A DNA stretch of 55,180 nucleotides from Candidatus Kaiserbacteria bacterium (GCA_016204695.1 JACQKD010000007.1:1-55180), one strand, 5' to 3'; counted from the first letter of the stretch, positions 7,943-54,987 are shown. Program-made: numbers and translations. The notes: generated from the sequence alone by a model not told the origin.

Positions 7943-10900
7943 CTATATCTCCTCAAACTTCGGTCGGACACGGATGGTCACTTCGGCGGAACGGTCATCA
8001 CCGCCGACATCGGTACAGTCAATCGTGTATTTCGTCTCGCCGACAAGACTGATCGTGGGAGTCCCGGCGCTGTCCGCCGTTTTCGGATTTCCTCCGAGCG
8101 TATCGCCGTTTGTTCCCGTGACCGAACATCCGGTGTTGCCGTTACGATTCCATGATACGTTGCTCGTCCCTCCATAGTCCACGACGAGCGGGCTGGCATC
8201 AATGGTCGGGTCACCGCCGGGCCCGCCAGTCACAGTGACCGTCGCCTGCGCGGTGCGACTGGTGCCGTCGTTGTCTTCACATCGGACGGTGTACGCCTTA
8301 CTGCCGCTTGCCGGCTCATTCCTGACTCCGTTTGGTCCCTGCGTCTCGCCATTTGGCGGATTGCCGCCGCCGGTGCTGAAGTCGGCATCCCCAAAGCAGT
8401 TGACGCCATCGGACGCCCATCTGAGCTCCACATGCTGTCCGCTCTGTATGGTGACTGCGTCCTCCTCCCACACACTGTCCCCGAATCTCCGTATATCAAG
8501 GTCGGCGGTTGGAGCATCGCTGTCATCGTCGTCATCAGGAGGAGGCGATGTTGGCTCGGAACATGAGGCAGTCGTTCCTCCGTTTGAGCCGACGCAATTC
8601 CATGACCACGGACCGCTCGCGCCACCGATATTGTTTACACTGGTGCCGGCATCGCATTGATAATGAGTAGCATTGCACTTGCCGTTTACTACCGGCGGAC
8701 CTATCGGCTCGGAACACGATGCGCTAGTACCCCCATTTGAGCCATTACATGTCCATGTCCATCCGGTTGAGCTGACTACATTGTTTGCACTTGTGCTACC
8801 AGGGGCACACTCGTAGTGAGTGTCCGGCTCCGGCCTGCAAGCGCCATTGACCGGGCCGCACGACTCACCCTGTGCCACCACCATCACGCTGTTACTTTGT
8901 CCTCCGAAAGAACCACCGCCGTTGAAACGGAAAACATACCGGAAAAAGTACATGCCTGGGGATACATCTACAGTATTAAAGGATAACGTTCCGGTATCAG
9001 TACCGCCAGTCGAATCCTCGGTGACATATACGTCACCTGTACCTGTCGACTTATACATATTGATTCCATCCCCGGACCCGGGAGTTCCTGATGTAACATT
9101 CCACGTCACATCAACCAACTCACCTTGCATCAAACAGGCGGGCACTGCGGTAAGCACAACGGTTGGCGGCTTCGGCTCAGAGCATGAAGCGTGTGTTTCG
9201 GCACCACCACTCCCGCTACACACCCATGTCCACTCTGTGGATCCCTCAATGTTGTTGAGACTTACGCTTCCACCTTCACATCCATAGTGAGTGGCAGAAC
9301 AAGCGCCGAGAATAACACCGGGCTTCCACTCGGTACATACTGCATTGGTTCCGCTTCCGCCACCGGGAGTGCCGGCACAGTTCCATGTCCATTTCGTATT
9401 GGTTTCATTCTGATTGGCGGGCGTCCCGGCACTACATTGGTAGTGAGAAGGAGGATTACTGCATGCACCAACAACCGTTGGTCCCGTGGGAGTCACCGTC
9501 ACCGACGTTGAGCAGGTGCCGGTCTGACTCCCCGTACTTACCGTTCCGGTGTATGTCGTGTTTGCAGTAGGTGATACACTTCGACTACCGCTGGTGGTTC
9601 CGTTATGGACGTTACCGATGCCGCTAATTACAAAGGAGGTGGCATTTGCGCTTACCGTCCACGAGAGAGTCGTGGAGTTGCCCGATGATATCGTCGAGGG
9701 ATTCGCGGAAAGGGTGCAGATCGGGGCTCCGGCAGGCGGGGCAGGCTCCGAACATGAGGCGTCAGTATGATTGGGACCGGAACCATTGCAACTCCATGTC
9801 CACGGACCCGTGCTCCCGCCGGTTTGGTTTGCACTCGTACCCGTCCTGCATGCCCAGTGAGTATCGGGCTCGGAGTTACATTGACCATTGACAGTAGGAA
9901 TAGGAACGCCTTCCGGTTGGAATGTCGCACCGACGGTGCGGTCTTGGTTCATGGTCGTCTGACAGTCGGGCACCGTACTGCCGTCGCATCCGCTTGTCGG
10001 TCCCGACCAGTGGGAAAATACTGAACCGATTGCAGGAGAAGCATGCAATGTTACTGGTGTCCCGTCCGAGTAGCTCTCATTGCAGTCGCTTCCGCAACTG
10101 ATTCCCTGCCCAGTGACCGTTCCCGAGCCGGTGCCGCCTTTGTTTACTTGGAGCGTCCTCATTACCGCCGTGGGAGCCGTCACTGTTACGCTCCCGCAGG
10201 AGGCAGTCTTCGTATTTCCCAAGGTGTCGGCGACAATAACGGACGCGTTCCTGGAACCAGCTGTCGTGTACGTCCTCGTCCACGAGTGCGCCTCACCGCT
10301 TGAGAATGTCGCGCCGTCCGTATCGGCCCAGCTGTATTGGTAGAAGCCGCTTCCGCCCGATGGAGATGCTCCCCATGTGACAGACTGGTTAGTCTGTACC
10401 GAAGGGGCGGAAGCCTGACAAGTGACAGCGAGGGGAGGAGGAGGCACATCGTTGACCGTGATATCAAGCGAATCGGACGCGGTCGCTCCGCTATTGTCGG
10501 TGACGGTGAGCGTGCAAGAGTAGGTAGGATACACGTTCGAGCCATTAGGAGCGGTATATGCAACATCAAGCGTGTTATCGGGACTCAATGCGCCGCCGGT
10601 GCATGTCCACTTATAGGATGTAATTGAGCCGTCGGGGTCGCTCGCAGTCGCATCGTTGATGGCAACCTGTTGGCCTTCGGTGACCGTCTTGTCGGGACCG
10701 GCATCCACGACGGGCGGTTGGTTGTTAGGAGGCGGCTGTTGAGGATTATTTGCCATCACCGCAATAGTTACCCTCGGAAACTGTATGGTACCACCTAACC
10801 CAAACCGCCCCGGGTTGCTCAACCGATCCGAGTAGCACTCATCACCAACGCGTGTGTCATAACCAACCGTATAGTACCCGGGTGCCACACCGGCAATGTC

Positions 10901-11356
10901 AACATTTACCCTAAATGAATAATCGTTGCGGTCCCATATCCACGGCTGATTGTCCAAACTGCCCATATTGTGACCAAACGCCGCGCTATGGCCGCCATGC
11001 GCCGTTATCGAACGCGCGGGGGTCGTCTCACTCGCCGACAGTCGCGGTCCATTGGTTACCGGAGTAAGCTCGAACCATCCGGGGTTGCTTGCGTTGATAT
11101 GGTACGAGTAGATGAAATTAAACGGGGCGCTTCCTTCCTGTACGACAATGACCCGACCAAGGTCGGGGTCATACGAAACATTGGAGTTCACATCTTCGGG
11201 ATTCCGCAGAGACGTTATCCAGTTGGTCGGTACCACATCGCAATCCTTTTCCCACGGGGCACCCGGATAGTCGGCGCGGCCTGCATGCGCCGAAGCCGCA
11301 AAAAACAGTGGCGAAAGCAGGACGACAACGGAAATGAGAAGAAGGTATTTTTTCAT
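7943..11356 (-). CDS. Large secreted/surface protein with PKD/Ig-like domains and Cys-rich repeats
   Basis: Signal peptide (…ASAHA), PKD-like NQPPVVDAGPD…SDPDGSITSYKW, an InlB-B-like segment, five 4-Cys W-x-W-x-C repeats, S/T/G/P-rich composition. Confidence 0.85.
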   Translation of the reverse strand: MKKYLLLISVVVLLSPLFFAASAHAGRADYPGAPWEKDCDVVPTNWITSLRNPEDVNSNVSYDPDLGRVIVVQEGSAPFNFIYSYHINASNPGWFELTPVTNGPRLSASETTPARSITAHGGHSAAFGHNMGSLDNQPWIWDRNDYSFRVNVDIAGVAPGYYTVGYDTRVGDECYSDRLSNPGRFGLGGTIQFPRVTIAVMANNPQQPPPNNQPPVVDAGPDKTVTEGQQVAINDATASDPDGSITSYKWTCTGGALSPDNTLDVAYTAPNGSNVYPTYSCTLTVTDNSGATASDSLDITVNDVPPPPLAVTCQASAPSVQTNQSVTWGASPSGGSGFYQYSWADTDGATFSSGEAHSWTRTYTTAGSRNASVIVADTLGNTKTASCGSVTVTAPTAVMRTLQVNKGGTGSGTVTGQGISCGSDCNESYSDGTPVTLHASPAIGSVFSHWSGPTSGCDGSTVPDCQTTMNQDRTVGATFQPEGVPIPTVNGQCNSEPDTHWACRTGTSANQTGGSTGPWTWSCNGSGPNHTDASCSEPAPPAGAPICTLSANPSTISSGNSTTLSWTVSANATSFVISGIGNVHNGTTSGSRSVSPTANTTYTGTVSTGSQTGTCSTSVTVTPTGPTVVGACSNPPSHYQCSAGTPANQNETNTKWTWNCAGTPGGGSGTNAVCTEWKPGVILGACSATHYGCEGGSVSLNNIEGSTEWTWVCSGSGGAETHASCSEPKPPTVVLTAVPACLMQGELVDVTWNVTSGTPGSGDGINMYKSTGTGDVYVTEDSTGGTDTGTLSFNTVDVSPGMYFFRYVFRFNGGGSFGGQSNSVMVVAQGESCGPVNGACRPEPDTHYECAPGSTSANNVVSSTGWTWTCNGSNGGTSASCSEPIGPPVVNGKCNATHYQCDAGTSVNNIGGASGPWSWNCVGSNGGTTASCSEPTSPPPDDDDDSDAPTADLDIRRFGDSVWEEDAVTIQSGQHVELRWASDGVNCFGDADFSTGGGNPPNGETQGPNGVRNEPASGSKAYTVRCEDNDGTSRTAQATVTVTGGPGGDPTIDASPLVVDYGGTSNVSWNRNGNTGCSVTGTNGDTLGGNPKTADSAGTPTISLVGETKYTIDCTDVGGDDRSAEVTIRVRPKFEEI

Positions 11357-12140: not shown

Positions 12141-12707
12141 ATGATTCGGTTCATACGAGGAGAAGTGCTCGACATCGGTACGTTTGCGGTGACGGTGGAT
12201 GTCGGGGGTATCGGCTATCTGATTCATACACCGAGCACGAGCGGCGGGTTTGCCGTAGGCGAACCCGCCGCCTTCCACACACACCTCGCCGTCCGCGAAA
12301 ACGCGCTCGACCTCTACGGCTTCCTCACGACCGAGGAGCTTGACATGTTTCTCCTCCTCATCGGCCTGCCAAAAATAGGCCCGAAGTCCGCCATGCTCAT
12401 CATGTCGCAGGCCGATGTCGCGCTCTTGCGCAAGGCCGCCCTCTCGGGAGACGCCTCATATCTCTCCAAAATCTCGGGCATCGGCAAGAAGAGCGCGGAG
12501 AAAATAGTCATGGGCCTGCGGGAAAAATTCGGCGCGGAAGACATCGCACTCGGCGACTACTCCGACACCGACCACGATGTCATGGACGCACTCATCACCC
12601 TCGGCTACTCCCAGAAAGAATCCCGCGACGCGCTCAAAAAAATGTCGCCGGAACTCACCGAAACCAACGCCCGCATCAAAGCCGCACTCAAGCTTCTCGG
12701 ACGATAG
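12141..12707 (+). CDS. ruvA: Holliday junction branch migration protein RuvA
   Basis: MIRFIRG, VGGIGY, VRENALDLYGF, IGPKSA, GIGKKSAEKI, ALITLGYS. Confidence 0.97.
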   Translation: MIRFIRGEVLDIGTFAVTVDVGGIGYLIHTPSTSGGFAVGEPAAFHTHLAVRENALDLYGFLTTEELDMFLLLIGLPKIGPKSAMLIMSQADVALLRKAALSGDASYLSKISGIGKKSAEKIVMGLREKFGAEDIALGDYSDTDHDVMDALITLGYSQKESRDALKKMSPELTETNARIKAALKLLGR

Positions 12708-12835
12708 TTATCCGAAGTTGACTCGTTCCCCCCGAAGAAGCGCAAATCCTTTTTGCACGTTTTTGAGCGCCTCGTCGCTGACATCAAACAGCACCGTATG
12801 CGACCCTTTGATATAGTTGATGTCGGCAAACGCGG
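12708..12835 (-). pseudogene. Truncated, internally deleted copy of the NUDIX gene 3' end
   Basis: AFADINYIKGSHTV/LFDVSDEALKNVQKGFALLRGERVNFG matches the 52705-53196 product with 35 codons missing. Confidence 0.8.
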
Positions 12836-12930
12836 CAACAACGGCCGTCTGCGGGCAGAGTAGATTTGAGAAGATTCTTAAAACCAAGAATCGACTGTGC
12901 ATGAAAATCTTTAAACCTTCGGCTCTTTAT

Positions 12931-13095
12931 AAAAAAATAAACACAGGGTTGGAGAAACTCCTACCTGCGTTCTGTAGTGAAAATTGTCCGAAGACAAATT
13001 AAGTTCTGGAAGAACTAATGATGGTGGGGCCTAAACGCCCATTGAGCAAAAAGGAGCCCCACCATCATCTCTCTCTGCCACATTGGCTGGGAGAT
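12931..13095 (-). ncRNA. Candidate structured small RNA (or sixth leader)
   Basis: Promoter TTGACT-16-TATAGT (13129-13102), 13-bp stem 13018-13068, cUUCGg hairpin 12981-13000, terminal hairpin 12941-12970 followed by a U-rich run. Confidence 0.45.
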
Positions 13096-13121
13096 ATTTG
13101 AACTATAAGCTTTTTACAAAA

Positions 13122-13460
13122 TCAGTCAATACACTCCTGATCCTCGACGGCAAAGATTCTGTACCTGGCACGATATGGGTCATATTCCTTTCTGTCCTCG
13201 GGTAGCTTGCGTAGCCTGTATGGTTTCCTCTCTACCTGCATAATCTTATTTACCCCACTAAGGACAGATGTCAGTGTTTTGAACCCAGAGAGACGCAGAA
13301 TCTCATATTCGCTCATCGGCCGATTGCCGTTTGTGCGGAAGACAGCGACTACATTTCGGAACCTCTCTGGAAACGGGTATTTCTCAATTTCTCTCCACTC
13401 GCCCTCGGTGATCACCCTGTCTGTTGATCTCGGCTTCACCGACATTCTCCCCTCCTTCAC
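13122..13460 (-). CDS. Hypothetical basic protein, possibly winged-helix
   Basis: 4-nt overlap with the pheA stop; RPMSEYEILRLSG…TSVLSGVNKIM resembles a helix-turn-helix. The fold is inference only. Confidence 0.6.
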   Translation of the reverse strand: MKEGRMSVKPRSTDRVITEGEWREIEKYPFPERFRNVVAVFRTNGNRPMSEYEILRLSGFKTLTSVLSGVNKIMQVERKPYRLRKLPEDRKEYDPYRARYRIFAVEDQECID

Positions 13461-14380
13461 TCTATGATCGCCTCGTTTAGAAACGAGCCAAGTACGATCA
13501 TCCGCTTGCTCATAGCGGCAAGTAACGTGAAGATCGCATTCATGACACGTGGATTTTTATGCACATCCATCTCTATGCAGAACACTACGCGATTGTCCGC
13601 ACCTCCGAGCGGAATTTGTGGAGCATATCGAACATTCACCTTGAGCGCCGCCATGGGGCTCAAGATGTCATGAAGGACGCCCGCCTCGTTCCGGTCAGGC
13701 CACAACAACACGGCAACCCCCGATCCAAAATCGTTTTGGACTATGCGATGTCCTTTCACCACAAGGTAAAAGTGCGTGTAATTTTCTTTGACATCCGCTA
13801 CATCGTCCACGAGCGGCGTCAAATTGTACAGCCCGGCGCAAAAGCGAGACGCGATCGCAGCGCGCGACGGATCTTGGATTTCCGCAACAGACTGTGCGGC
13901 GCCGGAAGTACTGGACATTGGCTCCAGTGAGGCGTCAGGAAGAATGCGCCGAAGCATTCGAGCGCACTGCCCCAGGGCCTGTCCGTGCGAGACCACCGTC
14001 TTGATGTCACTCAATTGCACCGAAGGATCACAAGCGAAGAGCTGATGCCTGATACGCAATGTAACCTTACCCACGACATGAAATGTCTCCTCCGAAACAA
14101 AAGAAGGCTGGGTGGATAGGTAGTACTTCTCATGACTCGGTCCTCTCATGAGATAGCGCATCACACCAGCCACGTATCCCTCAACTGTGTTGTAAACCGG
14201 GACGATACCCATTGGCAAATCAGCTTCACCGCTACCGTTTTCAATCTCAGCAAGCACATCCTGATTGTCTTTCACAAACTCAATTTCTACAGTTCCATGG
14301 AAGACGTTTGCGTTTAGCCATTGAGCTACACAATCTCCGTAGGATCCTCCCGGCCCCAAACACACTAATTTGCGACTCAT
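13457..14380 (-). CDS. pheA: Prephenate dehydratase (PDT + ACT), divergent
   Basis: LGPGGSY, PVYNTVEG, SHGQALGQC, STSGAA, AAIAS, NYTHF, C-terminal ACT ending LGSF; Phe-rich leader upstream. Confidence 0.88.
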   Translation of the reverse strand: MSRKLVCLGPGGSYGDCVAQWLNANVFHGTVEIEFVKDNQDVLAEIENGSGEADLPMGIVPVYNTVEGYVAGVMRYLMRGPSHEKYYLSTQPSFVSEETFHVVGKVTLRIRHQLFACDPSVQLSDIKTVVSHGQALGQCARMLRRILPDASLEPMSSTSGAAQSVAEIQDPSRAAIASRFCAGLYNLTPLVDDVADVKENYTHFYLVVKGHRIVQNDFGSGVAVLLWPDRNEAGVLHDILSPMAALKVNVRYAPQIPLGGADNRVVFCIEMDVHKNPRVMNAIFTLLAAMSKRMIVLGSFLNEAIIE

Positions 14381-14426
14381 CAGACACTCTCCCCTACCGT
14401 TTTGTGGTTATCAACGAACACTCCCA

Positions 14427-14465
14427 AAACAAAAACCGCTGCCCGGAGGGTAGCGGTTTTTGTTT
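14427..14465 (-). terminator. Attenuator terminator of the Phe leader
   Basis: Minus strand: aaacaaaaaccgctaccc-tcc-gggcagcggtttttgttt, 46 nt before the pheA start. Confidence 0.85.
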
Positions 14466-14481
14466 CAGATTTCTTGTAACA

Positions 14482-14544
14482 CTAACGCACCCTTCGGGTT
14501 TCCGAGGTTCTAAAGAAACCAAAGAAGAGTGCGTTGTGTATCAC
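14482..14544 (-). CDS. PheL-like leader peptide MIHNALFFGFFRTSETRRVR
   Basis: GTG start 7 nt after TTGCTT-16-TATAGT; 4 Phe in 5 codons; alternative stems and a terminator follow. Confidence 0.85.
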   Translation of the reverse strand: MIHNALFFGFFRTSETRRVR

Positions 14545-14687
14545 GGGGGTAACTATACCGTCTAGTTTATAAAAAGCAAGCACGTCGAAATATAAATAGA
14601 TTGAGGGCTCCCCGGAAATCGCATGTGAATACGACTCCGAGAGAGCCCTCGGGTCAGCCAATATGCTGACATGGGATCGACAGGAGT

Positions 14688-15008
14688 TTATTTTGCGTAG
14701 GGATACACCGCCGACCCCACGAGAGACGGGTCTTCAATCGCGGTAGACTGCCCACTGCAGGAAACGATCCTGCGGACTTTTTGTGTTAAGTCTTCGACAA
14801 CTCCACTGTCGAAGTCTCTGCCTACAAATACCTTTCTGGCAGCCAATCGAGCCCACGGGCCTCTCCCCCTCTTGGTGAAAAAGGCCACGGACCCCTTCGG
14901 GGCCACTTCGTCTGGCTGAAGCCAGCGAATGTGACATCCTACCCTTTGAGCTGCGGCGAGAATGGACCTAATAGCAGAAAGATCGTTCTGGGTAGCAACA
15001 ACTAACAT
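14688..15008 (-). CDS. Hypothetical 106-aa protein downstream of the Leu/Val attenuator
   Basis: AGGAGG 6 nt before the ATG at 15008 (alternative ATG at 15032); hairpin at 14603-14650 downstream. Confidence 0.6.
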   Translation of the reverse strand: MLVVATQNDLSAIRSILAAAQRVGCHIRWLQPDEVAPKGSVAFFTKRGRGPWARLAARKVFVGRDFDSGVVEDLTQKVRRIVSCSGQSTAIEDPSLVGSAVYPYAK

Positions 15009-15153
15009 CGTCAGCCTCCTTATCGGATACATGGACGCCCTGCCTTCACGCAGATACCATTTCAACCCAGCATCAGCGAGGCGGCAAAATAAGCGTCGGA
15101 ACGCCGACCTCACCGCCTCGCTGATGCATTTTGTGGAAAGAACTGAAGAACAA

Positions 15154-15190
15154 ACGAAAATCGACCTCCCAAAGGAAGGCCGATTTTCGT
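15154..15190 (-). terminator. Attenuator terminator of the Leu/Val leader
   Basis: Minus strand: acgaaaatcggccttcc-ttt-gggaggtcgattttcgt followed by ttgttctt. Confidence 0.8.
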
Positions 15191-15206
15191 CGTATGCTTC
15201 TACTAT

Positions 15207-15302
15207 CTATGAAAACATACGAGAACCAGCCTTCCTTTCAAGAAGGACTAGTCCTAGCACGAGAAGCTGGCTCTGTTGCCGACTTACTTCTATCGTTTTC
15301 AT
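15207..15302 (-). CDS. Leu/Val-rich leader peptide MKTIEVSRQQSQLLVLGLVLLERKAGSRMFS
   Basis: ATG 7 nt after TTGACA-16-TACTAT; LLVLGLVLL with two CTA codons; antiterminator and terminator pairings present. Confidence 0.8.
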   Translation of the reverse strand: MKTIEVSRQQSQLLVLGLVLLERKAGSRMFS

Positions 15303-15368
15303 ACAGAGTATAGTATGCCGACGCAAAAATATGTCAAGCAACCCGGACTCGGAATAGGAAAAGCAGCT

Positions 15369-15575
15369 CTAGGGAGAGCTGCTCGAGGTGGCGTCATAGG
15401 TGACTTCGACAAAACTATACATCTCCGGCGGGAACTCTGTCATTCCCGTCAGGCGATCCCAGGTCAGACGCTCAAAGTAAAGCTGCTCGTATTCAGCCTG
15501 AGTGGGACGTCTGTAGTGTCGTGCCGGACTCTGACTTTTGCAACTGTTCTCCGCTACTACTAAAGGAACTGGCAT
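15369..15575 (-). CDS. Hypothetical 68-aa protein downstream of the Ile attenuator
   Basis: Purine-rich RBS (gagggag) before the ATG at 15575; hairpin agcagctct/agagctgct plus U-run overlaps the stop. Confidence 0.5.
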   Translation of the reverse strand: MPVPLVVAENSCKSQSPARHYRRPTQAEYEQLYFERLTWDRLTGMTEFPPEMYSFVEVTYDATSSSSP

Positions 15576-15626
15576 CGTTCTTCTCCCTCTTCTTTGAAGA
15601 GCAATATGTCCTGTAACACCGCACAA

Positions 15627-15660
15627 AAGAAAAACTCCTCTTGGCAGAGGAGTTTTTCTT
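15627..15660 (-). terminator. Attenuator terminator of the Ile leader
   Basis: Minus strand: aagaaaaactcctct-gcca-agaggagtttttctt followed by ttgt. Confidence 0.85.
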
Positions 15661-15688
15661 GAGGAAACTGGAATCTAGTCGCGCGCCA

Positions 15689-15760
15689 TCAAGCAAACTC
15701 CTCGAGAGAGGAGATAATAATCGCAATGATGGCGCCCGTCAGATGTTGTTGCGATGTCAC
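15689..15760 (-). CDS. Ile-rich leader peptide MTSQQHLTGAIIAIIISSLEEFA
   Basis: GTG 6 nt after TTGACC-18-TAATAT; 5 Ile in 6 codons; GAGGAGTTT in the leader can pair with the terminator 5' arm. Confidence 0.8.
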   Translation of the reverse strand: MTSQQHLTGAIIAIIISSLEEFA

Positions 15761-15804
15761 ATCCTTATATTAAACGAGAATGTCCCACTTGGTCAAGTTG
15801 CGAG

Positions 15805-15856
15805 AAATAAAAACGATGCACTCGTAGCTCAAAGGGCAACATAGAGTGCACCGTTT
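15805..15856 (-). terminator. Terminator closing the Phe/Tyr cassette
   Basis: Minus strand: aaacggtgcactc…gagtgcatcgttt followed by ttattt. Confidence 0.65.
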
Positions 15857-15864
15857 CAAGTGGA

Positions 15865-15969
15865 CTATTGCCCACTTGGCCGCGCCGGGGGTGGCGCAGG
15901 CTTCTGGGTTCCGGACCCTTTCCCTTCTGCAGGGGGGATGGGGTCCGAACCTGTGTAACCCAGCACCAT
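15865..15969 (-). CDS. 34-aa Pro-rich small ORF MVLGYTGSDPIPPAEGKGSGTQKPAPPPARPSGQ
   Basis: AAGGAG 5 nt before the ATG; the only RBS-bearing ORF between the attenuator and the closing terminator. Confidence 0.4.
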   Translation of the reverse strand: MVLGYTGSDPIPPAEGKGSGTQKPAPPPARPSGQ

Positions 15970-16073
15970 AAGAACTCCTTTCTCAAGACCGCCACCATGA
16001 CGGCCTCCAGAGAACCTCGTTGTCCTCTGGCATCGAGGCGGGGTGTTCCCTGCGCGCGATGCCAAGTGACAAA

Positions 16074-16106
16074 CGAAAACTCCTCTCGGAGTGAGAGGAG
16101 TTGTCG
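16074..16106 (-). terminator. Attenuator terminator of the Phe/Tyr leader
   Basis: Minus strand: cgacaactcctctc-actcc-gagaggagttttcg followed by tttgt. Confidence 0.8.
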
Positions 16107-16122
16107 GGTGTGTTCTGTCTTT

Positions 16123-16221
16123 TCAGGCCTTTGCCATACTGACCGCACCGATCCAACTCCTCTTACTAAAGAAGTAATAGAAGGCAAAGAAATAAATGGC
16201 AACGGTCACAATGTAATGCAT
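16123..16221 (-). CDS. Phe/Tyr-rich leader peptide MHYIVTVAIYFFAFYYFFSKRSWIGAVSMAKA
   Basis: Promoter TTGACA (16262-16257)-17-TAGTGT; YFFAFYYFF; AGAGGAGTTG in the leader complements CAACTCCTCT of the terminator. Confidence 0.82.
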   Translation of the reverse strand: MHYIVTVAIYFFAFYYFFSKRSWIGAVSMAKA

Positions 16222-16258
16222 GATGTCGATGTAACACTATACCCACCCCCACACGTTG

Positions 16259-17053
16259 TCAATCGGCACCGGTGAGTTGCTTCACCTGTGCGGATATGTT
16301 CTGGAGCAAGCGTTTTTTATTCGAAAGATTATCGGTGATGGTCTTGACGAGCGCACTGCCGACAATGGCGCCATCCGCTCCCTGTTTTTCGAGAAGCGCA
16401 ATATGTTCCCTCTTTGAAATGCCGAAGCCCACGGCAAGCGGCAAGTCGGTCTGTCGCCGTATTCGTTTCAAAAGCTTGGGCATGTCCGCAGAAAGGGACG
16501 CCCGTGCGCCGGTGACGCCGAGCACGGATACAACATACAGATACCCTTTTGCGTAACGGAGAATTTTTTTGAGCCGCTCGGGAGTCGTAGTGTGCGCCAC
16601 GAGAAAGATGGGGTCGATGCCGGCCTTTGCCGCCGCCTGCGCGAACGGTTCTATTTCCTCCACCGGCACGTCGGGGATAAGCACGCCGTCGACGCCTGCG
16701 GCTTTCGCTTCTGTATAAAATCGCTCGATTCCTTTCTGGTAAACGATATTCGCGTAGACGAGCACGGTGATCGGTACGTCGGTGGACTCGCGAACTTTTT
16801 TGATGTATGTGAAGACGTGATCAGTGTCCATCCCGGCGCCGAGCGCGCGAATATCGGCGGCCTGGATCGTCGGGCCGTCCGCGAGCGGATCGGAATACGG
16901 GAATCCTATTTCCAAAAGATCAGCGGGCGACGCGATCGTTTTTGCAATCGATACGCTCGTTTCGAGGTCGGGATCTCCCGCAACGAGAAACGGCATGAAC
17001 GCGATCCTGCCTTCGGCTCTCGTCTCTTTGAATTTCTGCTCTAGCCGTGTCAT
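16259..17053 (-). CDS. trpA: Tryptophan synthase alpha subunit
   Basis: [36 protein letters not shown]. Confidence 0.97.
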
Positions 17054-18225
17054 AGGGATTGTGCGCGAGTGACGGTTTCGAGGTCTTTGTCCCCTCGTCC
17101 CGAAAGATTGATAACGACGATCTTATTTTTCGGCAGACGCTTTGCGAGCGCGTAGCCGTAGGCGACCGCGTGTGAAGATTCGAGCGCGGGAATGATGCCC
17201 TCGGTTTCACAGAGGAGCGAAAACGCTTCGAGCGCTTGTTTGTCCGTCACGGAGACATACTCCGCCCGCCCGATTTCTCGGAGAAAGCTGTGCTCGGGAC
17301 CGACGCTCGGATAATCAAGCCCCGCCGAGACACTATGCGTCTCTTTGATCTGGCCGAATTTGTCTTGGAGTACAAACGATTTGGTCCCGTGGAGAATACC
17401 GACCCTGCCTCCGGCAAAACGTGCGGCGTGTTTGCCGGAGGCGATACCAAGCCCTCCGGCTTCGACGCCGATCATCTGCACTTTCTTGTCTTTGAGAAAC
17501 GGATAAAAAAGTCCGATCGCATTGCTTCCGCCGCCGACGCAGGCGACAAGATAGTCCGGAGGGCGTTTTTCTCTTTTGAGGATATCGCGTCGCGCTTCCT
17601 CGCCGATCACTTTCTGAAAATTGCGGATCATCTGCGGGTAGGGGTATGGGCCGAGCACCGATCCGAGAAGATAGTGCGTGGTATTGATGTTGGTAATCCA
17701 GTCGCGGAGCGCTTCGTTGATTGCGTCTTTGAGCGTCTTTGATCCCGAAGAGACCGGCACGACCTCGGCTCCCAGGAGCTTCATCCGAAGGACGTTTGGC
17801 TTCTGGCGCTCCATATCCACCTCTCCCATGTATACGACGCATTCCAAGCCGAATTTCGCCGCAACCGTCGCAGTCGCCACACCATGCTGGCCCGCACCGG
17901 TCTCGGCGATGATGCGCGACTTCCCCATGAAGCGCGCAAGGAGCACCTGCCCCACGGCGTTATTGATCTTGTGCGCGCCCGTGTGCGTGAGGTCTTCGCG
18001 CTTGAGGTATATTTTCGCGCCGCCGGCTTTTTTGGTCAGCCGCTCGGCAAAATAAAGCGGGGTCGGCCGTCCGGCAAACTCATGCAGATGCCGCGCAAGC
18101 TCCGCCCTACACTTCTTATCGCGAGAAAATTTCCCGTATGCGCGCTCAAGCTCTTCAAGCGCGCTCATCAGCGTCTCCGGCACGAACTGCCCCCCGAATT
18201 CTCCAAAATATCCTTTTTTATCCAT
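17050..18225 (-). CDS. trpB: Tryptophan synthase beta subunit
   Basis: [15 protein letters not shown] (PLP Lys), [39 protein letters not shown]. Confidence 0.98.
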
Positions 18226-19084
18226 GTCGATCAGTCTTTTTCCGATAATATTCGTCGTTCGTAATGACTTTTATGGACTCTTCCTGTGCGGTGGAGATAA
18301 TAGTTTGCATCTCTTTCTCGGAACTACGCCCTCCTACAATCATCCCCATGACCGTGCCTGCAAATACATCCCCGGCATTGATGGGATCAAGCGGCCGGAC
18401 CACGCGGGCAAGAGGAAACATCCGACTCTCCGCAGGCGTTATGACTTCAATGCCGGAAGTGCCTTTTGTTTTAAAGATGTACTGCAGATTTTTGCAGTGC
18501 TCAAAAAGATCTTCTCCAATTTTGTCTGTCATATATTCGTACTCCTCCGCATTGGTGAAGAGGTGCGTTGCCGCTTTGACCAAGTCGATCGCATACTGCT
18601 CGTTATGCTTGAGGTGGTACAGAAGCGTATTGACCGCAACGACTTCGGGACATTGCATTTGTTTCAGTACTGCAAGCCCAAGTCGCGGATTCGAGCCGCT
18701 GAACAGGATGTTCTTCGACTTTTTCACCTGCTTCGTGGACAGCACAGGGCTATACGACCCGTAGACGCCGAACGCTATCTCTTCTCCTGACAGTTCAAAG
18801 GTGTCCGGGTCATAGGTGGATTGATAATAAAAACTCTCGCCTTCCATCTGCTCGACATTTTCTATGTGTACGGACGGCCCGAGGGCGCGCGCCAAGTCTT
18901 CGCGCGGCATGTCGGTCCCGATGACGCCGATTAGATCTACTTGCACGTGTTTGGCGGCCGCAAGGCTCGCGAGCGCGCCGTTGCCGCCAATGTATACGGG
19001 CGAGTACTCGGCACCGGCAAATCGGGACCTGCAAAACTCTATGGTTCCGAAAATCGTCAGTGACGTTGTGGTAAAAGATTCCAT
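18218..19084 (-). CDS. PfkB/ribokinase-family carbohydrate kinase
   Basis: GGNGA…IGVIGTD N-terminal signature, [18 protein letters not shown] anion-hole motif; overlaps the trpB start by 8 nt. Confidence 0.85.
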
Positions 19085-19191
19085 GTGTAATTGTGATTAG
19101 TATGAAAAAGGGTTACGGGCGGCGGATGGGCACAGTACCGCCCGCCACACCTCCCTCACCCTGTGACTTTGTTTGTAGTGTACCGTACCCC

Positions 19192-20007
19192 TCAATCCCC
19201 CACCAACTCCTCTAAGCTCTCAATGAATGTGAGCGCCGGAAATCTGGTCCTGAACTCGACCTGTCTCTCCGGGTTGATGATGATGCCAGTCACGTCATGG
19301 CACATATCCACCAAGAGACAGTCCGTCATGCTATCGCCGATATATATGATCGGCGATCCAGTCTCCAATCTTCTCGCAGTCTGCACTCTCTGGGCGGCAA
19401 GATAGACCGAGAATGGATGCGGCTTTGCCAGGTAACCGCGAGTGTAACCGTGCTCCGCCTCTTCTTGCTCAATGGTTTCACTGCCAACCACCAAATGTGC
19501 AGGAAAGATGTCACTTATTGCGCTTCTCGCGATAACTTGATGAACAAATCGTTCCGGACTGGCACTGGCGATCCCGCACACTATTCGCTTCTGTCTCATG
19601 TAGGCCAGAAGCGTATCAAGACCGGGGATTGGCGCGGGCAAATCTGCTTCAATCGACCGGTAAAGGAAGTCCCTCCGCATCGAGACGCAGAGACCAATCT
19701 GCTTTTCCGTGGACGAACCAGAAGACCTCCTGCCCAACTCGGTCAGCATTGATGGGAGACTTGGCATTTCGTGGGCGACATCAACATGTGCCGTCCCTCG
19801 AGCGATTGCAAGCAAGATGTGAAAAACTTCCCAATCACTCTTCCCTCGCAACAACGGCACAAAGCTTCGCGGGATAGGATCGCACACTCCCAACCCCTCC
19901 AGGACCGAATCAAACGAACTACGGTGGCGACGTGACGTATCGAACATTGTTTGGTCGAAATCAAAAACCAACACAGACCCTGTTCCTAAGTCCCTTAGTG
20001 ATCTCAT
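19192..20007 (-). CDS. HAD-superfamily phosphatase
   Basis: Motif I FDFDQT, motif II ASAS, KPHP, GDSMTD; AGGAGG RBS. Confidence 0.85.
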   Translation of the reverse strand: MRSLRDLGTGSVLVFDFDQTMFDTSRRHRSSFDSVLEGLGVCDPIPRSFVPLLRGKSDWEVFHILLAIARGTAHVDVAHEMPSLPSMLTELGRRSSGSSTEKQIGLCVSMRRDFLYRSIEADLPAPIPGLDTLLAYMRQKRIVCGIASASPERFVHQVIARSAISDIFPAHLVVGSETIEQEEAEHGYTRGYLAKPHPFSVYLAAQRVQTARRLETGSPIIYIGDSMTDCLLVDMCHDVTGIIINPERQVEFRTRFPALTFIESLEELVGD

Positions 20008-20145
20008 GATATCGTCCTCCTGCTTGTGGTTGTAATCAGCACAAAATTTTTGAAGAACTCAATCAAAAGAACCGTGTTTGTGCTGGTGTGTAGGATCTTT
20101 TCTAAAAGCCCACACACCAGCACAAACTGAAGCAATACGTCTGGG

Positions 20146-20937
20146 TCAACACCAGCCGGACTGCTTCAACTCCTGTATTTTCTGCAGGGGATCTTGAGAC
20201 TTGATGATCGAGGTGCCGACGAGTATGCCCCGCACACCAAGTCCGGTAAGCTCTCGGACATCTTCGGCAGTATTGATCCCCGATTCGCTCACCACTATCT
20301 TGTCTTTCGGAATGAGCCGCATCAGATCCCTCGTTGTTTGCAGGTCTACCGTAAGTGTCTGGAGGTTACGATTGTTGATACCTATAATCTCGGCATCTGC
20401 CTCAAGTGTCCGAGCAAGCTCATCCGCGTCGTGAACCTCAACGATACTAGCGAGACCGAGCGACCTTCCGAGAGACAAAAATTCTTTCAGCTCGGTCGCG
20501 GTGAGCAGAGAAGCCATGAGCAGAAACGCATCTGCCCGGGCCAGGAACGTCTCGTAGATTTGGTAGGCGTCAATGATGAAATCTTTTCTAAAGATCGGCT
20601 GTGGAGCAATGTCTTTTACATCTTTGAGATAGAGCAAATCACCGTCGAAATACGTCCGGTCCGTGAGTACCGAAACAGCGTCAGCACCGCTCTCCGCGTA
20701 GAGTCGGGCAATCTGTCGATGATCAAGACTGGTCAGCCGCCCCTCGGAGGGGGATTTAATTTTTATCTCCGCAATAAGGGCGACTCCTTCCATACCGAAG
20801 ATGTCTTTGAAGGGTCGAATTTCCCTTTTCCCCGTGAGTGCGGTCGACGTTCGTTCAATCTCACAAAGAGACATCTTCGATTTCGATTCATCGATTTCTT
20901 TCTTTTTTGTCGATATGACTTGTTTTAGGAAATTCAT
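20146..20937 (-). CDS. trpC: Indole-3-glycerol-phosphate synthase
   Basis: IAEIKIKSPSEG, SVLTD, RKDFIIDAYQI, VEVH, GINNRNL, SESGI. True start at MNFLKQ (20937); no fused TrpF. Confidence 0.96.
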   Translation of the reverse strand: MNFLKQVISTKKKEIDESKSKMSLCEIERTSTALTGKREIRPFKDIFGMEGVALIAEIKIKSPSEGRLTSLDHRQIARLYAESGADAVSVLTDRTYFDGDLLYLKDVKDIAPQPIFRKDFIIDAYQIYETFLARADAFLLMASLLTATELKEFLSLGRSLGLASIVEVHDADELARTLEADAEIIGINNRNLQTLTVDLQTTRDLMRLIPKDKIVVSESGINTAEDVRELTGLGVRGILVGTSIIKSQDPLQKIQELKQSGWC

Positions 20938-20965
20938 GGTGATAGTGATGGTAGATACTGCACAA

Positions 20966-21004
20966 ACAAAAACTTCTCCCGCAAAGTCCGGGAGAAGTTT
21001 TTGT
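20966..21004 (-). terminator. Attenuator terminator of the Trp leader
   Basis: Minus strand: acaaaaacttctcccg-gactttg-cgggagaagtttttgt followed by ttgt. Confidence 0.88.
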
Positions 21005-21023
21005 GGCTGGTGTCTGGGAGATA

Positions 21024-21107
21024 TCAAGCCAACGCGAAAATCGGACTTTGCAGAGAAGTTTGCAAGGCCCACCAGTTCAACGAAATTGCGCGTCGGTTTG
21101 ATTTCAT
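21024..21107 (-). CDS. trpL: TrpL-like leader peptide MKSNRRAISLNWWALQTSLQSPIFALA
   Basis: Tandem TGG TGG; promoter TTGACA-17-TACCGT (21148-21120); terminator between it and trpC. Confidence 0.88.
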   Translation of the reverse strand: MKSNRRAISLNWWALQTSLQSPIFALA

Positions 21108-21154
21108 ATGTTCACGAGTACGGTAACAAATGTGGATTTCGCTGTCAACCAAAG

Positions 21155-23325
<2,171 letters not shown>

Positions 23326-52536: not shown

Positions 52537-52704
52537 GATGCGCGACCTCGTGGCTGTTAGAACCAACATTACATGCAGAGACGCTCTCAATTTTTACATC
52601 CCCCCGACCTGCCGCATAAACAAGAGAAACCCCCGACCGCGCGATATCGCAACGACTATGGTCTCCGTAGCCGTTGGTTGCCTCGGAACATCGACCGGTA
52701 GTAG

Positions 52705-53196
52705 TTATCCGACGTCGATTCGTTCCCCCCGAAGAAGTGCGAACCCTCTTTGCACGTTTTTGAGCGCCTCGTCGCTGACATCAAACAGCGTCATCGCCTC
52801 ATCCTCGGCGGCCCACACGTACCCGCTGTGATCTTCGGGGTGGAGAACAATGTTCTCCACCGGGTCGAGAAATGTCGCAAAATACACGATCTCTACGGTA
52901 TGCGACCCTTTGACATAGTTGATGTCGGCAAACGCGGTAAATGGATCGCCCACGTTGATCCGCATACCCATCTCTTCCTTGATCTCGCGCGCAAGTCCTT
53001 CCTCAAGACCTTCCCCGAAGTCGATATGTCCTCCAGGAAGCTCGTAGAAACCGGGGAGAAACTTCTTCGTCTCCGCCCGCTTGGGCAAAAACACTTTCTC
53101 CACCCCGTCAAACACATGGTGGATGAATGCCGACGCGGTGACGACCTGCTGTCCGTGCGCAGGTGTCTCACTGTCGTGGATAATCTTGTTTGTCAT
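52705..53196 (-). CDS. NUDIX hydrolase
   Basis: ELPGGHIDFGEGLEEGLAREIKEEMG Nudix box. Confidence 0.9.
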   Translation of the reverse strand: MTNKIIHDSETPAHGQQVVTASAFIHHVFDGVEKVFLPKRAETKKFLPGFYELPGGHIDFGEGLEEGLAREIKEEMGMRINVGDPFTAFADINYVKGSHTVEIVYFATFLDPVENIVLHPEDHSGYVWAAEDEAMTLFDVSDEALKNVQRGFALLRGERIDVG

Positions 53197-53200
53197 AACG

Positions 53201-53659
53201 TTATACAAAATCCTTTGGGTCAAACATACTTCGAAATGGCCCCAATTGGTCGTTCAGATCAAGCATTTGCACTTCTTCTTTCGTACAAAAGCGGATCTCG
53301 TCGCATTCCCCAGTCGGTGTAAATACCAGATTTTGCACTTCAAAAGGAAACGCCAGGATCAGCGTATAGTACCAATCCATCTGTCTTCTTGAATAATTTT
53401 TGTTCGTCCATAGATACATCGGTTTAGCCGCCATCTTCGTTACCGTAAGTCCCATCTCTTCTTTCACTTCCCGCGCCAGGGTATCGGCGAATGTCTCTCC
53501 GAAATCCATGCCGCCTCCCGGAAGCTCCCAGAGCGCCACGGGTTCGCCGTTGCGCACGCAGGAGGGGTCGTGCGCAAGCAGGACCCTACCATCTCGGACA
53601 CAAAGTCCTTTTACGGCAACTCGGTAAAAGGAGTCGGGAAAGTGGGATGAGGTTTCCAT
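53201..53659 (-). CDS. NUDIX hydrolase
   Basis: WELPGGGMDFGETFADTLAREVKEEMGL Nudix box. Confidence 0.9.
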   Translation of the reverse strand: METSSHFPDSFYRVAVKGLCVRDGRVLLAHDPSCVRNGEPVALWELPGGGMDFGETFADTLAREVKEEMGLTVTKMAAKPMYLWTNKNYSRRQMDWYYTLILAFPFEVQNLVFTPTGECDEIRFCTKEEVQMLDLNDQLGPFRSMFDPKDFV

Positions 53660-53688
53660 CGCGTGTATTATACTGTATCCATACGCCC

Positions 53689-54987
53689 ATGAGCACCCTC
53701 CTCTATTACCTCAAAAAACTGATTCCGGAATTCGTGCTCCGGGCGGTTTTGCCTGTCTACCACTACCTTCTCTCGTTCGCCGGAGCGGTGCGGTACGGCT
53801 TTCCATCGAGACATATCACCGTTATCGGGGTCACCGGTACCAAGGGCAAATCGTCGGTGGTGGAAATCATCGGAGCGATCTTCGAGGCGGCCGGCAAGCG
53901 CACAGCGCTTGCCGGCACCATCCGTTTCAAAATCGGCGACCAATCCCGCCCCAACCTCTACAAAATGACGATGCCCGGGCGTTTCTTCATGCAGAAATTT
54001 CTCCGCAAGGCGGTGGACGAGCATTGCGACATCGCCGTCATCGAGATGACTTCGCAGGGCGTTATGCAATACCGACATAAATGGATAGACCTCGACGCGC
54101 TTATTTTCACCAACATCTCCCCCGAACACATCGAGTCGCACGGCTCGTTTGAGAATTACCTTTCTGCAAAGCTTGCACTCGCCCGCTTGCTCGAACACTC
54201 GCGCAAACGCCCGCGCCGCGTCATCGCAAACACAGACGACGAGCATGGCAAGGATTTTCTCGCGGCAGACGTCGAGGAAAAAATTCCCTACTCGCTCAAA
54301 GACCTCGACCTCCACACGCTCACCGGAGACGGCGCGAGCATCGTCATTGACGGCATGACCATCCGCACGCCGCTGATGGGCCTCTTCAACGTGTACAACA
54401 TGCTCGCCGCCATCGCCTGCACGCGAGCATTCGGTGTGTCGCTCAAAACGATTGAAAAGGCGCTTGTCGCCTTGCCGCCGATTGCCGGCCGGGTTGAAAA
54501 ATTTGAGAGCCCGAAAGGAGCGCAGAAGCAGGTTACCGCCGTCGTCGACTACGCACATACGACCGACTCCCTCACGCAATTTTATACAGCATTCGAAAAA
54601 GACCGGAAAATCTGCATCCTCGGCAACACCGGCGGCGGCCGCGACATATGGAAGCGCCCGGAGATGGGGCGCATCGCCGCAGAACACTGCGACCACGTCA
54701 TCCTGACGAATGAAGACCCCTACGACGAAGACCCCGCCGCGATCATACAGGCGATGGCCGACGGCATCGAGGACAAGACGCGCCTCTCCATCATCATGGA
54801 CCGGCGCGAGGCCATCCGCACTGCACTCCGCCGCGCTCCCGACCGAAGTTTCGTGTTGATTTCCGGAAAAGGCACCGACCCGTACATCATGGGTCCGCGC
54901 AACACGAAAGAACCATGGAGCGACGCACAAGTAGTACAGGAAGAAATGGCGAAATTGTTTGGTGAGGAAAGTGGGAGCACCCCCTGA
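53689..54987 (+). CDS. murE: UDP-N-acetylmuramyl-tripeptide synthetase
   Basis: GVTGTKGKSS, EMTS, FTNISPEH, FNVYN, VDYAHT, EDPYDE, GKG. Confidence 0.9.
   Translation: MSTLLYYLKKLIPEFVLRAVLPVYHYLLSFAGAVRYGFPSRHITVIGVTGTKGKSSVVEIIGAIFEAAGKRTALAGTIRFKIGDQSRPNLYKMTMPGRFFMQKFLRKAVDEHCDIAVIEMTSQGVMQYRHKWIDLDALIFTNISPEHIESHGSFENYLSAKLALARLLEHSRKRPRRVIANTDDEHGKDFLAADVEEKIPYSLKDLDLHTLTGDGASIVIDGMTIRTPLMGLFNVYNMLAAIACTRAFGVSLKTIEKALVALPPIAGRVEKFESPKGAQKQVTAVVDYAHTTDSLTQFYTAFEKDRKICILGNTGGGRDIWKRPEMGRIAAEHCDHVILTNEDPYDEDPAAIIQAMADGIEDKTRLSIIMDRREAIRTALRRAPDRSFVLISGKGTDPYIMGPRNTKEPWSDAQVVQEEMAKLFGEESGSTP

Follow-up and report, generated by a model that had tools for sequence, protein, structure and literature searches.

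The window analysed here, a 55,180-nucleotide (nt) stretch of DNA from Candidatus Kaiserbacteria bacterium (JACQKD010000007.1), carries on its minus strand, at 12931..21148, an array of five modules that are very probably amino-acid attenuators, with the specificities Trp, Phe/Tyr, Ile, Leu and Phe. The modules share one layout, in which a sigma70-like promoter is followed by a short leader open reading frame (ORF) with a cluster of control codons, a predicted antiterminator, a U-tailed terminator and a downstream cargo. The Trp and Phe modules precede biosynthetic genes, and the Phe/Tyr, Ile and Leu modules precede small ORFs of 34, 68 and 106 amino acids (aa). In the reading that we favour, and to which we give about an even chance, the attenuators are intact and lie in a lineage-restricted island, where the Phe/Tyr, Ile and Leu cassettes have swapped their cargo and been co-opted as working starvation-induced units. 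The source is a groundwater bacterium with an 835-kb assembly (95.8% complete).

The five specificities are packed into 8.2 kb, and four of the modules into 1.8 kb. A first-pass annotation of this DNA had placed five modules on the minus strand, with leaders of 20-32 codons, their control runs and about 1.8 kb for four of them, and all of these were located as claimed. Its Leu/Val leader has the module and codons described, and a Leu leader is the better reading of it. The parts are as follows.

21120..21148, minus strand: predicted sigma70-like promoter of the Trp module, 9/12 consensus positions, 12 nt before the start codon, directly behind groEL
21024..21107, minus strand: Trp leader ORF, 27 codons, start at 21107, WW at codons 12-13
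20971..20999, minus strand: Trp attenuator terminator, -17.7 kcal/mol with a U tail
16234..16262, minus strand: predicted Phe/Tyr promoter, 9/12, overlapping the trpA stop
16123..16221, minus strand: Phe/Tyr leader ORF, 32 codons, start at 16221, eight Phe/Tyr in codons 10-18
16078..16102, minus strand: Phe/Tyr attenuator terminator, hairpin and U tail
15767..15796, minus strand: predicted Ile promoter, 9/12, 6 nt before the GTG
15689..15760, minus strand: Ile leader ORF, 23 codons, start at 15760, five Ile in codons 11-16
15627..15660, minus strand: Ile attenuator terminator, related in sequence to the Phe/Tyr terminator
15310..15337, minus strand: predicted Leu promoter, 10/12, 7 nt before the ATG
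15207..15302, minus strand: Leu leader ORF, 31 codons, start at 15302, six Leu and two Val in codons 13-21, two rare CTA codons
15153..15191, minus strand: Leu attenuator terminator, related in sequence to the Thr terminator on contig C8
14552..14579, minus strand: predicted Phe promoter, 8/12, 7 nt before the GTG
14482..14544, minus strand: Phe leader ORF, 20 codons, start at 14544, four Phe in codons 7-11
14427..14465, minus strand: Phe attenuator terminator, hairpin and U tail

Since the promoter-like hexamer pairs (8-10/12 in the five modules) end 6-12 nt 5' of the start codon, the five leaders appear to be leaderless or nearly so. The terminator cores of all five modules have energies of -12.9 to -17.7 kcal/mol. 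In a random frame of equal length, the control-codon clusters would arise by chance with probabilities from 2e-3 (WW) down to <5e-6 (8/9 Phe/Tyr). When the 835-kb assembly was scanned for promoter, short ORF, codon cluster and terminator, a rule that was fixed after the five modules had been seen and that gauges rarity rather than discovery, 8 strict matches were obtained, whereas 10 locally shuffled genomes gave 0-1 apiece. The 8 comprise the five array modules, one module each for Thr and Met, and a doubtful Trp-rich ORF on contig C6. Terminator regions of different modules are alike beyond a structure-keeping null, for example Phe/Tyr with Ile and Leu with Thr (p 0.005 each, 28 pairs compared), and this sharing of terminator sequence between specificities points to a single family of cassettes whose control codons were exchanged. 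By score, the modules are not members of the Rfam leader families: Phe_leader gives 29.4 bits on the Phe module, under the gathering score of 55, and the Trp, Phe, Leu, Thr and His leader models have no match on the other four array modules at E 5. In a check of the assembly, a single contig of run X1 covering 12763-21269 and one of run X2 covering 12763-20958 were identical to it, although this DNA may have been assembled from these very runs.

The switches were modelled by folding the transcript up to the terminator loop with the ribosome footprint masked. With the ribosome in the middle of the cluster, the predicted probability that the terminator 5' arm is held upstream is 0.83 for Phe/Tyr, 0.83 for Ile, 1.00 for Leu, 0.83 for Phe and 0.34 for Trp; with the ribosome at the leader stop, it is 0.03, 0.49, 0.04, 0.00 and 0.05, respectively. 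Folding of each leader, as the first-pass annotation had proposed, yields predicted alternative helices in all five modules, with the antiterminator freer on stalling than at the stop. The Trp antiterminator helix takes mostly the terminator loop, and the Phe/Tyr antiterminator is the minimum free energy (MFE) structure with the ribosome at codons 13-16. Compared to shuffled sequences, the 2:3 duplex has p values of 0.005 for Trp (-13.9 kcal/mol), 0.05 for Phe/Tyr, 0.08 for Ile, 0.001 for Leu (-22.0) and 0.07 for Phe. In the unbound RNA, folded as a partial transcript, the 1:2 protector suppresses the antiterminator in the Trp (0.24), Ile (0.24) and Phe (0.00) modules, whereas the antiterminator stays in the Phe/Tyr (0.82) and Leu (1.00) modules, where the 1:2 protector is not dominant. 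In full-length MFE folds, the terminator is favoured at most ribosome positions.

The placement of the Trp module before trpC and of the Phe module before pheA, on which the first-pass annotation had relied, is borne out by Pfam and NCBIfam. The two units, and a sixth one behind them, contain the following features.

20146..20937, minus strand: trpC, indole-3-glycerol-phosphate synthase (Pfam IGPS, E 3e-74; NCBIfam TrpC over cut-off)
20076..20127, minus strand: long hairpin without a U tail between trpC and the HAD gene, from folding
19192..20007, minus strand: HAD-family hydrolase inside the trp unit (Pfam HAD_2, E 5e-11; Shine-Dalgarno (SD) site -10.3)
19108..19153, minus strand: terminator-like hairpin between the HAD and PfkB genes, -22.6 kcal/mol with a U tail
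18218..19084, minus strand: PfkB-family kinase (Pfam PfkB, E 3e-6; best NCBIfam model a nucleoside kinase, far under cut-off)
17050..18225, minus strand: putative trpB, tryptophan synthase beta (Pfam PALP, E 2e-46), overlapping trpA
16259..17053, minus strand: trpA, tryptophan synthase alpha (Pfam Trp_syntA, E 2e-88)
13457..14380, minus strand: pheA, prephenate dehydratase with an ACT domain (Pfam PDT, E 1e-37; ACT under cut-off)
13122..13439, minus strand: 105-aa helix-turn-helix (HTH)-like ORF directly behind pheA (Atlas 0.91-0.93 to HTH clusters, a lead; SD -12.9)
12931..13129, minus strand: sixth unit, with a promoter (10/12), structured RNA (z -6.0), a 22-codon ORF ending in three His and a terminator at 12939-12972

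The Trp unit runs in the order trpC, HAD, PfkB, trpB, trpA, and is interrupted by the HAD and PfkB genes, with the terminator-like hairpin before PfkB; we read the PALP gene as trpB from its family and position. For pheA, seven close homologs were found at 43-62%, and scans of the collections gave distant enzymes only or nothing. The sixth unit, which shows no canonical attenuator geometry and has no Rfam match, may be a small RNA or an atypical leader.

Cognate pairing extends beyond the window. The same genome has two further modules of the layout.

G000:C8:40914-40958 (L224/L229), minus strand: Thr leader before thrS (Rfam Thr_leader 34.3, gathering score 55)
G000:C7:14280-14363 (L223/L259), minus strand: Met leader before a gene of the S-adenosylmethionine (SAM) hydroxide adenosyltransferase family (SAM hydrolase)

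That the Trp, Phe, Thr (thrS) and Met (SAM hydrolase family) modules of this genome all show cognate pairing supports the favoured reading. Met-run leaders were recognized by eye at 6 of 21 other SAM-hydrolase loci with upstream DNA, three of which pass a threshold of four Met in eight codons. A conserved RNA-like motif of about 55 nt with its own terminator was also observed 60-250 nt upstream of the SAM-hydrolase gene (L261-L281); its core recurs in 16 of 22 loci, and the motif at times stands in tandem with the Met leader. It was not seen in G000, and has no Rfam family in the loci tested. At thrS, the best 29 of 112 loci in relatives include 28 with an upstream motif that we take to be T-box-like, with a weak Rfam T-box match; a Thr run is absent from all 28 loci for which upstream DNA was available. 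Set against this motif, the Thr leader at thrS would show a swap of regulatory device.

In relatives, leaders of the kinds found in the array stand before the enzymes that match them. Among 18 chosen and 78 sampled genomes of the order, four of the six HMGL-like loci are leuA, and all four have a leaderless Leu-rich leader, while the other two have none. In G421 (L306:7821-11324), a Leu leader-leuA cassette is directly followed by an Ile leader and ilvA; in G315 (L290:11938-16573), a Phe/Tyr leader precedes aroF-tyrS-pheA; and in G044, a Phe leader precedes pheA. These pairs indicate that such leaders normally drive entry enzymes and that the chaining of cassettes occurs elsewhere; in G421 and G315, isolated entry enzymes would be under attenuation. 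Together with the RNA anatomy and the two additional cognate modules of the genome, they support the trpL/pheL/ilvL/leuL logic that had been proposed for the array. The Ile leader here aligns weakly to those of the relatives. In the switch test applied to relatives, the terminator arm of G039 is still sequestered at the stop (0.77), and G284 and 4/6 Met leaders fail the terminator rule. Moreover, trpA occurs in 4/400 order genomes with a Trp leader by rule in 0/4, and genes joining prephenate dehydratase and ACT domains occur in 8/400 with a leader in 1/8. Another group, 66 of 164 family genomes (L008-L036), matches pheA via a short (~190-aa) prephenate dehydratase-like gene, which lies in another context, mostly divergent from a gene that is presumably HU-like, and has no counterpart in G000; among the upstream stretches listed for the 29 such loci fetched, no leader was seen by eye.

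The cargos of the Phe/Tyr, Ile and Leu modules differ from these enzymes.

15805..16075, minus strand: Phe/Tyr cargo RNA, a 271-nt hairpin chain (z -7.1, 0/200 shuffles) with a U-tailed terminator at 15812-15855
15865..15969, minus strand: 34-aa Pro/Gly-rich ORF inside the Phe/Tyr cargo RNA (SD -13.0 kcal/mol)
15369..15575, minus strand: 68-aa orphan ORF, the Ile cargo (SD -9.4 kcal/mol), with its own terminator at 15361-15384
15070..15127, minus strand: long hairpin in the 5' region of the Leu cargo (region z -5.5)
14688..15008, minus strand: 106-aa protein of a small unnamed family, the Leu cargo (SD -12.0 kcal/mol)

The first-pass annotation had described these ORFs as unknown, each followed by its own hairpin. 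They do stand as cargos without a Pfam family, and terminators follow the 34- and 68-aa ORFs; behind the 106-aa ORF, hairpins only were found and no U-tailed terminator. Their SD sites compare with a median of -2.1 kcal/mol in the long ORFs of the genome, and are matched by 0.3-3.2% of 6069 random ATGs. Strong SD sites also occur at pheA here and at aroF of G315 (-10.0), and an SD site alone could therefore be inherited from a lost gene. No remnant of a cognate enzyme was found in any frame of the three cargos, and no relevant Pfam family in the read-through frames. Pseudogene relics of aroF, ilvA and leuA were not recognized: only short scattered matches to seven enzymes from relatives were obtained (best E 0.007, in a tiny search space), and blastx for such relics gave no match among 5927 ORFs.

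The protein status of the 34-aa ORF is doubtful, and it may not encode a protein; its exact sequence is absent from the protein collection, and neither Pfam nor PHROG gives it a family. In the protein collection, the 68-aa ORF forms a singleton cluster; it lacks a Pfam family, and viral contigs, plasmids and PHROGs gave nothing above chance. It contains no Ile codon where 4.3 are expected (P 0.012, noticed post hoc), and the other two cargos have no such bias. The 106-aa ORF has eight homologs at 33-46% identity, one of them on a 105-kb Candidatus Sungbacteria contig, with 15 invariant columns. Because its alignment with the family begins at residue 1, it seems to have brought its own start. 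Its AlphaFold2 model (mean confidence score pLDDT 71) is a small alpha/beta domain with a predicted receiver-like fold, and structure comparison gave Z up to 7.8 to the RcsC linker, PhyR and other receivers, values that are not clear of unrelated folds. Foldseek returned no match at E < 0.01, no Pfam family was assigned, and Atlas scores were at most 0.80. Receiver domains have a conserved acidic pocket and a phospho-acceptor Asp. In this respect the 106-aa protein does not look like a response-regulator receiver, since none of the 15 invariant columns is an Asp or Glu and the nine members have no receiver Pfam family. The Leu cargo is the likeliest selected output among the cargos and, judging from the fold, probably a non-enzymatic interaction or regulatory domain.

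Entry enzymes of the kinds found behind such leaders in relatives are missing from the assembly. The families DAHP synthase, IlvD, IlvC, LeuA, TrpE, TrpD, TrpF and chorismate mutase have no match in the assembly, and ilvA was not found there by tblastn. Only trpC, trpBA and pheA, the terminal steps, are kept from these pathways, and a class IV aminotransferase is present. Of the other genomes of the family, 0/164 have trpB. In G001, G004 and G005, groEL is followed by other genes. The region is best read as a lineage-restricted island.

In the favoured explanation, RNA polymerase would start at or just 5' of the leader start codon. When charged cognate tRNA is short, the ribosome would stall at the control codons, segment 2 would pair with the terminator 5' arm, and transcription would read through into the cargo; when it is plentiful, the ribosome would cover segment 2 and the predicted terminator would form. 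The Trp and Phe cassettes retain trpC, trpBA and pheA, which could presumably only finish their pathways from scavenged intermediates. In relatives, cassettes of the Phe/Tyr, Ile and Leu kinds drive aroF, ilvA and leuA, genes that were probably lost here. The intact switches kept here would now gate other cargos, namely the structured RNA that contains the 34-codon ORF, the Ile-free orphan of 68 aa and the alpha/beta protein of 106 aa. Co-option is supported in that none of the cargos is a decayed enzyme gene and at least the 106-aa protein is conserved. Several observations weigh against this explanation. The 2:3 duplexes of the Ile, Phe and Phe/Tyr modules are weak (p 0.08, 0.07 and 0.05), and with the ribosome at the stop codon the Ile switch is still half on (0.49). 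In the searches made, no homolog turned up for the 34- or the 68-aa ORF, the 106-aa family is found in 0/400 genomes of the class, and the 106-aa protein is not Leu-poor (P 0.23). The DNA of the array was found in 0/60 relatives beyond hairpin matches of 26-38 nt, with no leader at those, leaving no orthologous control codons to compare. In addition, in the part of PMC1262725 drawn on here, a similar anatomy before ilvB and leuA of Streptomyces coelicolor is reported not to act by strict attenuation.

The first-pass annotation had posed a selected starvation sensor panel and a relic of lost operons as alternatives, and had asked what follows such leaders in relatives and whether the control codons are conserved in orthologous loci. 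The two are compatible, and the data favour a mixture of both. The missing enzymes, and the cognate enzymes behind such leaders in relatives, are relic-like, whereas the 106-aa cargo, conserved and not a decayed enzyme, speaks for co-option. A selected sensor panel goes beyond these data: no orthologous array was found among the 60 relatives. Analogous leaders are kept in relatives, and the Ile leader aligns to them weakly. A purely neutral history is possible, though we lean against it: the switches would be real, but aroF, ilvA and leuA would have been deleted not long ago, and the small ORFs would be passengers, or leftovers in which an SD site and ATG survive ahead of unrelated sequence, with no selected link to the amino acid. 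The absent pathway families and the enzymes behind like leaders fit this history, as do the heritable SD sites (those of G315 aroF and of pheA here), the embedding of the 34-aa ORF in hairpins, and the absence of trpB from all 164 family genomes. It fits less well with three switches whose promoter, frame, codons and helices are all intact, with enzymes that left no trace in any frame, with a 106-aa ORF that brought its own start, and with the separate terminators behind two cargos. An unlikely extension of co-option is a sensor bank in a host-dependent bacterium that reads the charging of Trp, Phe/Tyr, Ile, Leu and Phe separately, its small regulatory products jointly reporting host nutrition to a lifestyle programme; shortage of Leu would release a pseudo-receiver protein and shortage of Phe the HTH protein encoded behind pheA, and the other products would be an Ile-free peptide and a structured RNA.

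We consider it quite improbable that the output is RNA, with terminated leader RNAs or structured read-through RNAs acting in trans like rnTrpL of Sinorhizobium. The strong folding of the Phe/Tyr cargo (z -7.1), the Leu 5' region (-5.5) and the sixth unit (-6.0) agrees with such a role, for which the portion of PMC6614838 used here offers a precedent. However, hairpins past the terminator were also seen by eye before an ordinary enzyme gene, aroF in G315, no Rfam family exceeds its threshold, the genome has no long complementary target (E 0.05) except for one 41-nt match outside the modules, and the Leu cargo is a conserved protein. It seems very unlikely, too, that the anatomy misleads and that the units are mostly terminated or follow general ribosome speed rather than single amino acids. 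The preference of full-length MFE folds for the terminator at most ribosome positions, the sole Rfam leader match in the window, which is below threshold, and the Streptomyces precedent (PMC1262725, as far as that source was used) would accord with this, but the control codons fit the cargo in four modules here and in several relatives, and they change with the cargo, as in Leu-leuA beside Ile-ilvA in G421.

The enterobacterial trpL, pheL, leuL, ilvL and thrL are leader-peptide attenuators, and Rfam holds Phe_leader (RF01859) and Thr_leader (RF00506). The present modules resemble them in the ORF with cognate codons, the competing 2:3 antiterminator and 3:4 U-tailed terminator, and the cognate enzyme or synthetase that follows in four modules here. 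Unlike them, they are apparently leaderless or nearly so, score 29.4 and 34.3 against an Rfam gathering score of 55, and form chained cassettes with one short cargo each, three of the cargos being non-biosynthetic, and a Met version is present. As described in the portion consulted of bioRxiv 10.1101/834739, the mycobacterial polycysteine attenuators, or 'ribulon', likewise have leaderless sensory ORFs at several independent loci, with downstream genes beyond known enzymes, but they free a ribosome-binding site and respond to one amino acid, as opposed to the intrinsic terminators and five clustered specificities seen here. Candidate attenuators of Actinobacteria before trp, ilvB, leuA, trpS and leuS share the predicted leader peptides and terminators before enzymes or synthetases outside Proteobacteria; the part of PMC1262725 referred to describes no tandem multi-specificity array, and some of its candidates were not strict attenuators when tested. 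The released attenuator RNA rnTrpL of Sinorhizobium meliloti (PMC6614838, in part) shows that such RNAs can act in their own right; the module RNAs here are predicted from sequence. Patescibacteria are not treated in the part of PMC4833913 drawn upon, and in a mostly open-access literature, without supplements, no paper was found on attenuators or leader peptides in Patescibacteria or the candidate phyla radiation, or on Met-codon leaders. The mechanism is textbook, and what is added here is the density of specificities, together with a swapped cargo from a conserved family.

Patescibacteria are usually regarded as auxotrophs with little regulation. Seven predicted leader-peptide switches in one 835-kb genome, including the Thr leader, would point to fine amino-acid sensing and to an exchange of regulatory devices. 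Should the orphan cargos be under selection, the control codons of the leaders would tell which signal induces these uncharacterized genes, and the genes would become testable. Short leaderless cassettes of this kind could also serve as compact amino-acid biosensors.

The island is bordered by an internally deleted copy, at 12705-12838, of the 3' end of the gene at 52705-53223 (92-93% identity to 52702-52940). In G003, ruvA adjoins homologs of the genes at 53201-54987. Because of the deleted gene copy at the border and the neighbourhood of ruvA in G003, a 40-kb rearrangement with a duplicated end at the island border is likely. Outside the array, 7943-11356 on the minus strand encodes a secreted-looking protein of 1137 aa with PKD and InlB B-repeat-like domains and Cys-rich repeats.

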